27,907 nt of DNA from Bacteroidales bacterium. Its GTDB lineage: Bacteria; Bacteroidota; Bacteroidia; Bacteroidales; VadinHA17. The stretch spans positions 1 through 27,907 of the forward strand of contig JAITVX010000160.1 in NCBI GenBank assembly GCA_031285575.1, given 5' to 3'. A program made the position numbers and the translations under genes. Shown here piece by piece: positions 13,765 to 25,606 of the stretch (its first letter is position 1; the number at the start of each line of letters is the position of its first letter). The notes beneath the pieces were generated by a model. The model saw only the letters and a list, made by a program, of their open reading frames with translations. It made no database searches and had not been told where the DNA came from.

Positions 13765-15040
13765 TAATTCTTTCCCTTTTTATATTCAGTATTATGTTTC
13801 TTAAAACGCCTGTAATGCCTCCAAGGTATAAAAATACGAGGCACCGCTCGCCGATTGTTCCGGAGCCTGTTACTGATACTGCAAAGTAGCTAATCAATAT
13901 TGCAAAATAAACTGCAAATAAATCTTTTATAACCGGCAATCGTCTTAATACCGTATAATATCTTACACCTTCACGGAACAGACCTGCATAAATTAATATG
14001 TACATAATAATCCCGACAAGTCCTGAACCATAAAAAAACATTGTAATGTCACCGTGAATCATTCTTCCTCTGTCAAAATACTTAATGCCGAATGTTGCTG
14101 CGGTATTAAATATCTCCTCTCCAAAAAGTTTCTGTACAGTATCTGATTCTTTAAATTCATCCAGGGCATATAAAAATTCTACTACTCTTCCTTCTCTGTC
14201 AATATTCTCAGTTTGTCTAAGTCTCGACTCGTATCTCGTCATGAATGCATTTTCAAAAAAAGGAAATATCAGATATAAAACAAATATGGATGCTATTATG
14301 TACTTTATGAAGTTTATTCTCGACGACAGAAATAATAAACATACTAAAAGTCCTACAACCAAACCTACTATTGCAGCCCTTTTCATTACCATAAATATTA
14401 AAAATACGGATATAATGCCTATAAAATAAATTATATACCACATTATCTTCGGCAGTATGTCCTTTTTTGTTTTTAACAGAAACGGATATGTAAGCAGAAT
14501 AATTGAGAGTTGGTTTGTTATTCCAACTCCGGCTCCTCCGGTATAGAAAGTATCGTCTGCGTAGGCTGAAACACCATAGTTTAGAAATTGAGCAATAATA
14601 AGGTTGCCACAGGTAATAAGAGCACTGAATATAAAAAATATATTCAGCTGCAGAAGCATGTGATAATTTCTTATATAATAAATTCCTATCGAATACATTA
14701 ATAGAGGAATAAGCCATTTAAGATAACCGGAAAAAAAAGACCTTACTATATCTGATGAAAACAGGGTGCATATAAAAATATAGGCAAGGAACAGAATAAT
14801 ATACCGACCTTGCCGGCCTTGTGAAATCCTTTTAAATCCTAAAAGAGCTACAAATAATAACAGTATTATCCCCCTTGTTATACCGGGGTGAAATACTTTC
14901 GCTTCCATAAATGCAAAAAAGTAATAAATTGTTGAATCGGCAATGGCATTTATTATCGGAACTGCAAGAAGAAAGTAAAAAAACTTCCTGTCAACACCGT
15001 TAAACGGGTTATAAATCCTGTTAACAAAATTCAATTTCAT
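13727..15040 (-). CDS. wzy: O-antigen polymerase/ligase-like polytopic membrane protein (Wzy)
   Basis: About 10-12 hydrophobic segments, KRAAIVG motif, periplasmic loop with R...IHGD, AT-rich coding sequence, position inside a wzx/wza/wzc locus. Confidence 0.75.
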   Translation of the reverse strand: MKLNFVNRIYNPFNGVDRKFFYFLLAVPIINAIADSTIYYFFAFMEAKVFHPGITRGIILLLFVALLGFKRISQGRQGRYIILFLAYIFICTLFSSDIVRSFFSGYLKWLIPLLMYSIGIYYIRNYHMLLQLNIFFIFSALITCGNLIIAQFLNYGVSAYADDTFYTGGAGVGITNQLSIILLTYPFLLKTKKDILPKIMWYIIYFIGIISVFLIFMVMKRAAIVGLVVGLLVCLLFLSSRINFIKYIIASIFVLYLIFPFFENAFMTRYESRLRQTENIDREGRVVEFLYALDEFKESDTVQKLFGEEIFNTAATFGIKYFDRGRMIHGDITMFFYGSGLVGIIMYILIYAGLFREGVRYYTVLRRLPVIKDLFAVYFAILISYFAVSVTGSGTIGERCLVFLYLGGITGVLRNIILNIKRERINGSISAGIEKQH

Positions 15041-15144
15041 TTATTCCGGTTTATAGAATAAATTTTGTGCAACGGAGTAAACGACTAAATTACTAATGCA
15101 CTAAAGTGCACAGGTTTGGATAGCGAATGAAATTCGCCAGCTCA

Positions 15145-15250
15145 CGTCATTGCGAAGCAACTTGTTGCTGAAGCAACCGAGTTTACGAGCTCGGCGAAGC
15201 CAATCAATGTTACGTTCTGGATTGCTTCACCCTGCGGGTTCGCAATGACG
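15145..15250. repeat. CGTC-tagged REP-like palindrome with internal sub-hairpins
   Basis: Ends CGTCATTGCGAA...TTCGCAATGACG; inner TGAAGCAA/CAATC versus GGATTGCTTCA. Same family as the 16597 and 25479 cores. Confidence 0.85.
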
Positions 15251-15341
15251 GTAGAGTTTTATAGAAACTAAAGTAGCTGCACTAAAAGTGCAGGGTTTTA
15301 ACCGATAAAGCGATAATAAAAATGTAAAAACTGTTTTAAAA

Positions 15342-16118
15342 TTATTCTTCAGGCTCCGGTGGAGGCGGAATAGTTTCTACTTTCTCTTTTCTGTTGTTTT
15401 TTCGCAGCGTGGTGCGTGTTTTTATCCGCGTGCGATAATAATTGTTAAGTGTGTTTAATTCGTTAACGAGCGGATTATAGTCAACGTCATCATGCTGGTA
15501 TGTACAGTATTCAACGGAATCGAAAAACATGCCAATAGCCTTGCTGCATGAGCTGCGCAGTGCAGAAATATCTATATGCTGTTCGGCGCTTTTATCGGCA
15601 ATATAGTCGCGAAACAGTATTTCGTACTCTTTGTTGGCTGCAAACAGGCGCTCAAGAAGCGGGGCTATGCCTAACGCTGCTGCTGCATTGCGTACAGCGG
15701 TGTTTTCATTATAATCTTTTTCAAGTGCGGTTATTCTTTCACTTTGAGAAGTAATGCTTGCCCCTGCAATGCTTCCGGCGCGGTGCTTTTCAAACATACC
15801 GGAAACTGCTTTATATGCATTTGCAAACATGTCTATCCTAACCGGTTTAAAACATTTTACTATTTTATACGATACTTTTATAAGCGTGTCGCGTTCCCTG
15901 TCTATTTCATTTGCTTTTGCAAGCTTTTCATTTTTGCCAACACTCTTTATCATATTTGCAAGCTGCGGCAAAAATACAGCAAGGTTGCCATAGCTTTTGC
16001 CGAGGTGCATTTCGTTCATGTCATACTTGCCGGCAATAGCAATTGTGCGTTGTGCAGCGTTTGGAAACTCACTGTTCCATAAATCCTTATAGTGTACCCG
16101 TGCAATAGTCTGTTTCAT
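15342..16118 (-). CDS. DUF6261-like (HagB-related) helical protein
   Basis: Motif order NSEF...DRERD...SERITALEKD...LGIAPLLERLFAANKEY...R...Y...LVNELN.LNNYY...R matches my recollection of DUF6261; basic/Pro-rich tail. No HMM search was run. Confidence 0.7.
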   Translation of the reverse strand: MKQTIARVHYKDLWNSEFPNAAQRTIAIAGKYDMNEMHLGKSYGNLAVFLPQLANMIKSVGKNEKLAKANEIDRERDTLIKVSYKIVKCFKPVRIDMFANAYKAVSGMFEKHRAGSIAGASITSQSERITALEKDYNENTAVRNAAAALGIAPLLERLFAANKEYEILFRDYIADKSAEQHIDISALRSSCSKAIGMFFDSVEYCTYQHDDVDYNPLVNELNTLNNYYRTRIKTRTTLRKNNRKEKVETIPPPPEPEE

Positions 16119-16235
16119 ACTGTTTTTATTGTTTTTTTAATAAAAATTATATATAATAACCGGAAAAGCATAACATTATTCTGTATATACATATATTATT
16201 TTATATTTTTATTAATAAATTTATAAAAGTGTGTT

Positions 16236-16540
16236 TTTAATTTCGGGAAACATACTGTTTTTATTTTTAAAGCATTTTCCCAACCGGAAAATTATATTTA
16301 ACTACTGTCAATCCATTTCCCCTTCGGGGAAATAATACTTATTGCTGTTAATCCGTTTTCCCTTCAGGGGAAAATGCTGTTTTATTTAATATAATTAATT
16401 TCCCTTTTGGGGAAATGCTGTTTTTTTAATTAATATTGATTCCCCTTTCGGGGGCAAGGTATTTTATTTTTGAAAGCATATTTCCCCTGCAGGGAAACGA
16501 TGTGATTTTATTTAAACAATTACCTCCCTTTCGGAAAAAA
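16236..16540. repeat. Non-coding array of ~8 palindromic units (consensus ATTTCCCC-TTC-GGGGAAAT) at 41-42 bp period
   Basis: Hairpin centres at about 16243 (degenerate), 16283, 16324, 16365, 16407, 16448, 16489 and 16530, with a possible outlier near 16160. The AT-rich linkers resemble one another. Confidence 0.85.
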
Positions 16541-16561
16541 ACATTCTACATTGCCGTATAT

Positions 16562-16708
16562 TAGACTTTCTTCGTAAAAATATGCAGTATTCAGCATCGT
16601 CATTGCGAACGCAGTGAAGCAATCCAGAAAATGAGTACCACATGGATTGCTTCACTGCGTTCGCAATGACGAACAGGGTATTGAAGTTCTATTTTCCGAA
16701 GAAGTATA
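16562..16708. mobile_element. MITE-like element (copy 1) with ~19-bp TIRs enclosing a 30-bp-arm REP hairpin
   Basis: Ends TAGACTTTCTTCGTAAAAATA / TATTTTCCGAAGAAGTATA; perfect arms 16597-16626 and 16643-16672 around a 16-nt loop; abuts the GT4 stop codon at 16709. Confidence 0.8.
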
Positions 16709-17881
16709 TTATTTGCCACATGTGTTATTGACAATATTTTCTATCAAATCAACCTCATACTCCGTGCGTTCCTGCCAGCTCATAAAATTATCAAGAATAA
16801 ACTGACGGGCGGCTGCGCCTGTGCGTTGCAGAAAGGCACCGTCTGCAAGTGCAGCTGATATTATTTGGGGTAACCTGTTTATTTCATTCTGTTCAACAAG
16901 TATTCCATTTACATTATGCTCAATTAGCTCCGGAGTAGCGCCTTTGTTGAGGGCTATTACTGTTTTACCGCATATCATTGCTTCCAGTACCGGATTACTT
17001 ATACTGCTCAATGCGTTCATGCTTATAAACAGGTCGGCAATTGATATATAGTTATTAATATCGCTGTGTGGCAGTGCTCCTGTAAAGTAAATGTTGCCAG
17101 GAATACCAAGTCTGGTGCAGAGATATTTCAAATTATGTTCTTCAGGACCGTCGCCAACAATTATAAGTTTCACATTACTGTTCAGCGACAGCAGTCCTGG
17201 CATGGCTTTTATAATTAAATCTACCTGCTTCCACTTTGCAAGGCGCGATACTGTCAGTATTATCTGTTCATTATTGGGTGCTATCTGTTTTTTCAGTATT
17301 TCGTCTGTTGTATTGGAGTTCCAGCTTTTATCTATGCCGTTTTTCAGGAAGTGTATTTTGCTGTCTGGAATGCCAAATGACAGTGCCACATTACGGGCAT
17401 TTGTTCCGTCGTCGGTAAGTATGTAAACATCGGCTATGAGGCTGAATGCAAGCCGTGGAAAGAGATATGACGCCTTGAGTTTGAAGGTTGGGCTGTAAAA
17501 AACACCATACATTCGCATTACATAGCGTGTTTTAAAAAGCCGCGAGAGTAAAAAAGCAGGCAGAGCGGTTTCGGCAGTATGTGAATATATAACATGCGGC
17601 CTGGTTTTAATGATTTGACGTATGGCGGCAATGAAAAAACATATAAAGTTTAAAGGAAAAAAAATTACGTGAAGACTTGGATGTGTTTTGCTGTAAAGAG
17701 TTCTGATTCGTTTTATTGTAATTCCATCGAAATTTTCGCTTTTTTGACAGGAATAGTTTGTAATATAGCATACGCTGTGGCCTCTTTGGATAAAACCTTT
17801 GAGCGGAAGATACGTTGACAGGCGTCCTTTGCCCGGGCTAATGTCCCACATTCCGAGAGTTGAAAGATGAAGCGTATTCAT
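16709..17881 (-). CDS. Glycosyltransferase family 4
   Basis: RPHVIYSH, LKNGID, VSRLAKWKQVD, IVGDGPE, NPVLEAMICGK...NGILV. Confidence 0.88.
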   Translation of the reverse strand: MNTLHLSTLGMWDISPGKGRLSTYLPLKGFIQRGHSVCYITNYSCQKSENFDGITIKRIRTLYSKTHPSLHVIFFPLNFICFFIAAIRQIIKTRPHVIYSHTAETALPAFLLSRLFKTRYVMRMYGVFYSPTFKLKASYLFPRLAFSLIADVYILTDDGTNARNVALSFGIPDSKIHFLKNGIDKSWNSNTTDEILKKQIAPNNEQIILTVSRLAKWKQVDLIIKAMPGLLSLNSNVKLIIVGDGPEEHNLKYLCTRLGIPGNIYFTGALPHSDINNYISIADLFISMNALSSISNPVLEAMICGKTVIALNKGATPELIEHNVNGILVEQNEINRLPQIISAALADGAFLQRTGAAARQFILDNFMSWQERTEYEVDLIENIVNNTCGK

Positions 17882-23740: not shown

Positions 23741-23807
23741 CCGACACAGGGCAAACGTACGAAATTTTATGCGGCAGGCTTAGAATAGATCCAAACAGAC
23801 CCGCTTA

Positions 23808-23849
23808 GAGGTGCACGATTGGTCCTCCGAGGTGAACGATTGGTCCTCC
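23808..23849. repeat. 21-bp tandem duplication GAGGTG(C/A)ACGATTGGTCCTCC
   Basis: Copies at 23808-23828 and 23829-23849 differ at one base. Confidence 0.85.
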
Positions 23850-23875
23850 GAAGAGGCGACGCCAATGCCATAAGT

Positions 23876-25442: not shown

Positions 25443-25606
25443 TAGACTTCTTCGGAAAATAGAACTTCAATACCATGTTCGTCATTGCGAACGCAGTGAA
25501 GCAATCCAGAAAATGAGTACCACATGGATTGCTTCACTGCGTTCGCAATGACGATGCTGAATACTGCGTTTGAAACAATATACTGCATATTTTCCGAAGA
25601 AGTCTA
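25443..25606. mobile_element. MITE-like element (copy 2) with perfect 19-bp TIRs and the same 76-bp REP core
   Basis: TAGACTTCTTCGGAAAATA (25443-25461) and its exact reverse complement (25588-25606); core 25479-25554 is identical to 16597-16672. Confidence 0.85.

Follow-up and report, generated by a model that had tools for sequence, protein, structure and literature searches.

We analyzed a 27,907-nucleotide stretch of DNA from a Bacteroidales bacterium (assembly GCA_031285575.1, contig JAITVX010000160.1; hereafter the window), in which a gene of the DUF6261 family is preceded by a tandem array of phased palindromes. The window is contig C112 of a genome from a termite-gut metagenome (2.03 Mb in 265 contigs, 78% complete). 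The locus comprises the following features, the array being supported by a repeat search, Tandem Repeats Finder (TRF), pattern enrichment and an independent contig.

15342–16118, minus strand: DUF6261 (HagB-like) gene, 258 aa, identified by its PF19775 match
16119–16273, minus strand: A+T-rich spacer from the array to the start codon, holding a decayed eighth unit, as read from the sequence
16274–16539, no strand assigned: tandem array of seven units of about 41 bp

A phased palindrome array 5′ of a DUF6261 gene

In a repeat search of the window, we found that an 18-nt unit is present in seven copies, which start at 16274, 16315, 16355, 16398, 16439, 16480 and 16522 and show 72–100% identity to the reference copy; the start-to-start spacings are 41, 40, 43, 41, 41 and 42 bp. 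TRF reports a 41-bp period over 16273–16453, with 74–87% matches between whole units. Each unit carries a 17–19-bp palindrome of the ATTTCCCC-loop-GGGGAAAT type (16274–16291, 16315–16332, 16355–16372, 16398–16415, 16439–16456, 16480–16497 and 16522–16539), and the linkers are A+T-rich. The palindrome takes the form TTTCCCC-N3-5-GGGGAAA in the seven units, the last of which is decayed; the decayed eighth unit, TTTCGGGAAA, lies at about 16241–16250 and is 72% like the unit at 16355. When we counted the pattern TTCC-N4-8-GGAA, there were eight matches in the window as compared to 2.0 ± 1.5 in shuffled sequences (0 of 100 shuffles reach eight), and five of the eight fall inside the array.

Since the DUF6261 gene reads on the minus strand and 155 bp separate its ATG from the end of the array, the array lies 5′ of the gene. 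The gene product matches PF19775 with an E-value of 9e-18 (65.1 bits, with the cut-off at 27, over profile positions 3–154 of 154) and matches a custom hidden Markov model (HMM) built on 31 members with an E-value of 1e-68. Its translation ends in a basic C-terminal tail, RTRIKTRTTLRKNNRK, and no signal peptide was seen. No open reading frame of at least 50 aa overlaps 16119–16646 on either strand, and the 41-bp period is not a multiple of 3; a coding reading of the array was rejected on these two grounds. A CRISPR array was rejected as well, given that the entire 41-bp unit repeats, that there are no unique spacers and that the period is too short. When 14900–16900 was searched at a permissive E-value, no Rfam family reached its gathering score over the array (the best scores were 23.8 against 94 and 20.9 against 41), and the sub-threshold matches are microRNA-type noise driven by the palindromes. 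These results agree with the first-pass annotation, which had been made from the letters of the window alone and had described a phased row of palindromes, non-coding and upstream of a DUF6261 gene with a basic tail: seven palindromes and a decayed eighth are there, 40–43 bp apart.

A Logan contig, produced by an independent assembler, covers 15257–16611 with 0 differences and at single-copy depth; thus, the array is not an assembly artefact. In its own metagenome the array is single-copy, with a word depth of 6.8. The public runs that match the locus come down to one termite-gut DNA run, available as contigs, and no RNA run; in this sole matching metagenome there are no copy-number variants of the locus, although contigs drop rare variants.

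Linkage of array and gene across genomes

The termite-gut genome has eight DUF6261 genes, and each of them is preceded by an array of 41- or 42-bp period whose end is 5–155 bp from the ATG. Among the best loci of 29 other genomes (one per genome), TRF detects a 41- or 42-bp array 55–350 bp upstream of the gene in 18. In two further public assemblies both loci have one, of 5 × 41 bp and 5.3 × 42 bp, ending 74–76 bp before the ATG. Altogether, arrays are present upstream in 20 of 31 DUF6261 loci from other genomes and downstream in none. The central idea of the first-pass annotation, that the array belongs with the DUF6261 gene, is borne out by these counts, and the periodicity that it had proposed to look for in the flanks of other DUF6261 genes is found at those same 20 loci. 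Across the order, DUF6261 is present in 39 of 400 genomes, and a three-palindrome pattern with 40–43-bp spacing gives 1–8 matches in 20 of the 400; of the 20 pattern-positive genomes, 11 have DUF6261, as compared to 39 of 400 overall.

From one genome to another the units share no sequence: the period is held while the unit sequence is replaced. The dyad is kept by compensatory changes, as can be seen in two related genomes where the palindrome arms read TTTCGC...GCGAAA (G117) and TTTCAC...GTGAAA (G251), and the earlier claim that the symmetry is under selection thus gains support. When we placed the period label (41 or 42) on a maximum-likelihood tree of the 26 array-bearing proteins, we found three changes as compared to 8.3 in shuffles, with 0 of 500 shuffles as low, and the ten 42-bp arrays all belong to a single clade, which has a support of 97/97. 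Because kin share period labels, this result shows that gene and period descend together and does not count independent events. Taken together, these data suggest that the gene and the array probably work as one unit in Bacteroidota. We found no paper on the rule that an array precedes DUF6261 or on the kept period and dyad.

Arrays and mobile elements in the termite-gut genome

To describe the other arrays of this genome, we ran TRF on all of it and found 79 arrays with periods of 40–43 bp and 2–8.5 copies in 2 Mb, plus many 21- and 23-bp arrays. With each consensus rotated to its best hairpin, the common design is a 17–18-nt palindrome, usually TTGC-nnn-loop-nnn-GCAA or TTTC-nnn-loop-nnn-GAAA, and there is often a second, weaker dyad about 21 bp from the main palindrome. 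The inner arms vary by array (GCGCC, GCACA, GCATC, GCCGG, GCGGG, GCGTC, TCACA, TCTCA and TCTTG; TCCCC in the window), and the palindrome core of the window is not shared by any other array in the genome. Units are homogenized within a locus, and paralogues differ in copy number, from 2 to 8.5. The three-palindrome pattern has 78 matches in this genome as compared to 0 in 60 congeners, and DUF6261 was not found in any of the 26 congeners searched. Genes shared with congeners are only about 66–73% identical in DNA, and the "genus" is for that reason a broad one.

About 70 of the 79 arrays adjoin other genes and have no DUF6261 gene beside them; they are found in divergent, tandem and convergent intergenic regions. 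When we searched for distant DUF6261 relatives beside these arrays, the custom HMM found the eight known genes and a weak match on C201, and an all-against-all BLAST of the array-neighbor proteins gave mostly singletons. The array type is therefore not exclusive to the DUF6261 gene, contrary to what had been supposed at first, and many of the other arrays lie inside a transposable element of the miniature inverted-repeat type (MITE). At C49:1–1779, an open frame of 592 codons starts with the contig and continues across an array of 42-bp period (1–206).

The MITE was recognized from one 42-bp array subfamily whose conserved flanks are 18-bp terminal inverted repeats, CAGGGCAAACGCATGAAA and its complement. 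Three insertions show target duplications of 9 bp (GTTACTGAT, TGTTAACAC and TATTTATTC; twice on C174 and once on C21). The CAGGGCAAACGCATGAAA ends also bracket arrays of 21 bp on C8, C264 and C255. In the genome as a whole, the MITE end sequence occurs about 70 times, and because many of these copies sit at contig ends they account for the fragmented assembly. The 42-bp unit of the MITE is homologous to the units that precede the DUF6261 genes on C114 and C163. In the 60 congeners the MITE sequence has no match, and an empty site cannot be read there, since the genes that flank it here are not neighbors in those genomes and share about 70% identity. Within the window, a partial MITE copy is present at 23747–23851, where 2.1 copies of a 21-bp unit, GAGGTGAACGATTGGTCCTCC, come after the end CAGGGCAAACGTACGAAA.

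A similar association is known from Porphyromonas gingivalis, in which MITEPgRS/MITE464 carries 41-nt tandem direct repeats between IS5-like ends (Naito 2008; Klein 2015; PMC4596501). BrickBuilt carries 23-nt repeats, likewise between IS5-like ends; the repeats of these elements are intergenic, have no spacers and lie between short terminal inverted repeats, at about 19 copies per genome (PMC4596501). Hemagglutinin or hag genes go unmentioned in Klein 2015 (PMC4596501), and we found no paper on 41- or 42-bp arrays in Bacteroidetes beyond the P. gingivalis MITEs. The termite-gut genome shares the periods of 41–42, 21 and 23 bp with these elements, and its MITE, with 18-bp ends, 9-bp duplications and an internal 42- or 21-bp array, is built in a similar way; however, the P. 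gingivalis elements have IS5-like GAGAC... ends, whereas the terminal repeat here begins CAGGGCAAACGC..., and the window array has no element ends and is single-copy.

This background gives weight to the reading that the arrays are selfish DNA, that is, minisatellites borne by MITEs or other repeats that reached DUF6261 genes by insertion preference or hitch-hiking and have no function for the gene. The 42-bp subfamily with its terminal repeats, its duplications at three sites and its roughly 70 end copies is what such a reading predicts, as are arrays in every intergenic configuration, the excess of pattern matches over the congeners, the homology of the MITE units to the DUF6261 arrays of C114 and C163, and the published 41-nt repeats in MITEPgRS (PMC4596501). 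The window array does not fit this description. It has no terminal inverted repeats (around it, nothing better than 15 nt at 73% is present) and no target duplication, it is single-copy, and the MITE end CAGGGCAAACGCATGAAA is absent near 16100–16700, with the nearest copy at 23747; it does not belong to the MITEs with an internal minisatellite. The link to DUF6261 also spans many families in whose genomes other arrays are few or absent, and an array that is always 5′, with a period that tracks the protein tree, indicates long co-descent and not repeated insertion. We consider the selfish reading quite unlikely. The first-pass annotation had held that a match to a standalone repeat family unrelated to the gene would count against its proposal; the MITE-borne arrays are in part such a family, and the linkage to the gene holds too. 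Its further suggestion of a recombination scaffold that spreads the gene finds no direct support.

The cassette of gene and array is bounded on both sides by a high-copy palindromic repeat:

16597–16672, no strand assigned: palindromic MITE-like element with a 30-nt perfect inverted repeat, GTCATTGCGAA..., the array-side boundary (depth 270–1400)
15130–15250, no strand assigned: second copy of the palindromic repeat, the boundary on the 3′ side of the gene (word depth 330–690)

The palindromic repeats extend over 15067–15334 and 16541–16741, and their metagenome depth is several hundred to 1400 as compared to 7–9 for unique DNA. The bracketing elements are of the GTCATTGCGAAsGCA...GCTTCAC...CGCAATGAC type, and the first-pass annotation places another at 25479–25554. 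The array-side element is also found just outside the arrays of C114, C163, C77, C23 and C50.

Other repeats of this genome were seen in passing. Arrays with 21-bp units of the ATTTCC-TTCA-GGGAAAT type lie between a 14-bp inverted repeat, AACTGATGTTACGC ... GCGTAACATCAGTT (C234:756–949, C244:6723–6922, C97:665–765, C238:4290–4356, C144:7081–7292 and C211:1–117), and form a second MITE-like or possibly invertible element family. Arrays with 23-bp units and the hairpin GTTCCCyATGCGGAAC are present at C131:8937–9035, C176:3570–3682, C177:3179–3311 and elsewhere; their period is that of P. gingivalis BrickBuilt and their sequence is unrelated to it. A poly-C tract of 8 to 18 C lies in a dispersed repeat upstream of some 42-bp arrays, GCTTAGCATTTAC(C)nATTTGTCTATAAATCA (C135:2665, C249:8542, C173:~20, C43, C41 and eight more). 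Its length varies between copies, which makes it a candidate slipped-strand switch.

The DUF6261 protein and the possible function of the array

To see what the protein might contribute, we modeled it with AlphaFold2 together with 19 homologues. The model is an all-helical bundle of ten helices with a pLDDT (predicted local distance difference test) of 89, in agreement with the all-helical character given in the first-pass annotation. Residues D73, R76 and D77 are invariant in the 19 homologues, among which a basic C-terminal tail is common. No credible match to the window protein was found in the PDB, by fold or by sequence, or in NCBIfam or PADLOC. The model does match AlphaFold database clusters named "Hemagglutinin protein HagB" (E-values of 2e-7 to 5e-5, template modeling score up to 0.66), and the ESM Atlas places the window protein among Bacteroidota DUF6261 clusters. 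This likeness to HagB/HagC of P. gingivalis is limited: the comparison is with database clusters whose names come from automatic annotation, and the identity is 14–18%. The family is large, with 403 proteins at an E-value of at most 0.001 from one query, and multi-copy, with eight genes in this genome and 20–43 first-look candidates in some genomes; a word-based search with the window protein returned 3 proteins only. In the literature we found DUF6261 in two papers, both with passing mentions only, in Streptococcus.

A symmetric homodimer was predicted with a score of 0.53, as compared to 0.00 for the best control. In a benchmark, 20 of 30 proteins solved as a pair of identical chains and 1 of 23 solved as single chains reached this mark, counts that apply only roughly here since our own alignment was used as input. 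The predicted interface (75–98 and 148–157) lies beside the invariant D73, R76 and D77. The prediction supports a homodimer and says nothing on nucleic-acid binding.

The palindromes could serve as sites in duplex DNA or as hairpins in RNA, and we compared the two strands. Stem mismatches in 26 arrays of known sense comprise 20 of the G.T type and 15 of the A.C type, whereas a selected RNA hairpin should strongly favor G.U; this comparison speaks against RNA. Folded as RNA, the window array reaches –78.4 kcal/mol in the sense and –77.4 kcal/mol in the antisense orientation, with a z-score near –5 for both, and in its minimum-energy fold the units pair with one another in preference to local hairpins. 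Many array palindromes have 2-nt centers, which are unable to form an RNA loop. The strand symmetry and the 2-nt centers favor duplex-DNA sites for a symmetric binder, and the RNA-hairpin idea of the first-pass annotation gains nothing from them.

Promoters were scanned for with the Bacteroidota –7 box, TAnnTTTG. Across the loci, there are six perfect boxes between array and ATG, eight upstream and none inside arrays. In the window, there is no perfect TAnnTTTG in the gap between array and ATG or in the 200 bp beyond the array, where near-matches only are found; judging from the sequence, the promoter of the gene may lie in the 16119–16273 spacer. Perfect boxes between array and ATG are present at L104, L106, L116 and L014. 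Canonical promoters, TTTG-N20-22-TACATTTG, are found 86 bp (C23, ~8230) and 125 bp (C44, ~1050) upstream of arrays that end 5–20 bp before a DUF6261 ATG. If these promoters drive the gene, the C23 and C44 arrays are in its 5′ leader.

The C23 and C44 promoters fit a reading in which the array acts as RNA: a transcribed 5′ leader of tandem 41-nt hairpins, either acting in cis on stability or translation or cut into unit RNAs that pair with the protein. The closest known arrangement is that of type III toxin-antitoxin systems, in which, for toxIN, 36-nt repeats lie 5′ of the toxin gene; in the toxI/toxN work of Blower et al. the repeat sequence is reportedly private to the locus and the unit length fixed. 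The likeness to toxIN, cptIN and tenpIN is in the fixed-length repeats (36–45 nt there), private to each locus and directly 5′ of a single gene. An array invariably placed 5′ of the gene, at a short distance, would suit this reading, as would sense-strand loops in the window array that include GAAA and GAA and a weak excess of A over T on the sense strand (17 of 25 skewed arrays, 17 vs 8). However, the strand asymmetry that a functional RNA should leave is missing from both the mismatches and the folding, pairing between units is preferred, the centers are often too short and Rfam gives no match. The –7 box is downstream of the array at other loci, and no public RNA run contains the locus sequence. 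DUF6261 is all-helical and has no match in PADLOC, its fold is unrelated to a ToxN/AbiQ-like nuclease, and no terminator was identified between the repeats and the gene; with no ToxN/AbiQ-type endoribonuclease and DUF6261 as the sole Pfam match, membership in the type III systems was rejected. An RNA module of this kind seems to us unlikely.

The reading that we prefer, tentatively and at somewhat less than even chances, is that the array forms a series of dyad binding sites in helical phase, which controls the gene and is perhaps bound by the gene's own product. The array would be the cis-acting partner of the DUF6261 gene. With one 17–19-bp palindrome per 41 bp, or four helical turns, all sites would lie on the same face of the duplex, where a symmetric dimer could bind them cooperatively and set expression of the gene. 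Half-sites of 7 bp placed 3–4 bp apart suit a dimer that contacts two successive major grooves. The linkage of array and gene, the inheritance of the period, the dyad kept between loci and the symmetry of the two strands also speak for such sites. No conserved neighbor gene that might provide a further dedicated binder is present at DUF6261 loci, where the genes stand alone behind a non-coding stretch of 600–700 bp. We infer that the most economical binder would be the DUF6261 product itself, in line with its predicted homodimer; the array would then be a private autoregulatory operator. Gene and array descend together. Unequal recombination or slippage would homogenize the units within a locus, and between loci the sequence turns over fully with the period and dyad symmetry held. 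In the termite-gut genome, the MITE and other dispersed repeats have also captured this kind of array and spread it to about 70 further intergenic sites.

Several findings weigh against this operator reading. No DNA-binding fold or motif was recognized in DUF6261; 11 of the 31 homologue loci have no array that TRF detects; about 70 arrays of this genome have other genes beside them; and the position of the array relative to the promoter is not uniform between loci.

A row of dyads at this spacing has a known counterpart in sopC of plasmid F, in which a 43-bp unit is directly repeated 12 times and every unit holds a 16-bp inverted repeat. The units of sopC, about four helical turns long, run head to tail as they do here, and in sopC each inverted repeat is bound by a dimer encoded next to it, SopB. 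The closeness of the unit design raises the possibility that the array serves a mobile replicon, either as a parS/sopC-like centromere or as replication iterons, which the first-pass annotation had put forward. No ParA, ParB or Rep gene is nearby. In the window, the flanks are Wzy_C-like, Glycos_transf_1 (GT4) and Polysacc_synt (flippase) genes, which make up a chromosomal polysaccharide locus, and homologue loci are embedded among housekeeping genes. One chromosome set holds eight gene–array pairs and 79 arrays, the array is 5′ of the gene and not 3′ of an operon as in sopC, and DUF6261 has no recognized helix-turn-helix. A role in partition or replication is thus highly improbable.

The variation in copy number, from 2 to 8.5 between paralogues with units homogenized within each locus, bears on a last reading, in which nothing binds the array. 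It would be a hypermutable minisatellite beside the promoter of a HagB-like, possibly surface or adhesin, family, and gain or loss of units would alter spacing or leader length and hence expression, much as the 7-bp repeats that precede the hmw adhesin genes of Haemophilus influenzae. The multi-copy family and its AlphaFold database relatives named hemagglutinin HagB are in keeping with this reading, and promoter activity of BrickBuilt segments in P. gingivalis is described in the published account (PMC4596501). A pure length tuner, however, needs neither a palindrome in each unit nor a period of 41–42 bp over deep divergence, and the sole metagenome shows no copy-number variants, although rare ones would be dropped from contigs. 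We regard a copy-number tuner as unlikely, to the same degree as the RNA module.

The operator reading can be taken one step further. Each DUF6261 dimer may recognize the palindrome private to the array upstream of its gene, either in DNA or in leader RNA, and concerted evolution would then diversify the code at a constant spacing of four turns; as a general rule for the family we hold this to be improbable. New in this work are the terminal repeats and target duplications of a MITE that carries arrays, the placement of the period on the protein tree, the tests of strand symmetry and the prediction of a homodimer.

For the DUF6261 family, which is large in Bacteroidota and without an assigned function, the array offers a concrete handle in the form of array binding, autoregulation or RNA partnership. 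It is a cis element whose 41–42-bp period and dyad symmetry are kept over deep divergence while its sequence is replaced. In termite-gut Bacteroidales, the arrays and their MITE carriers break assemblies and occupy a sizeable share of intergenic DNA, and if the MITE-borne copies are functional, a regulatory element is being spread by transposition in this genome. If self-specified pairs of protein and array exist, Bacteroidota would possess phased operators of a new kind, and the MITE copies in termite-gut species would place dozens of unrelated genes under DUF6261 proteins.

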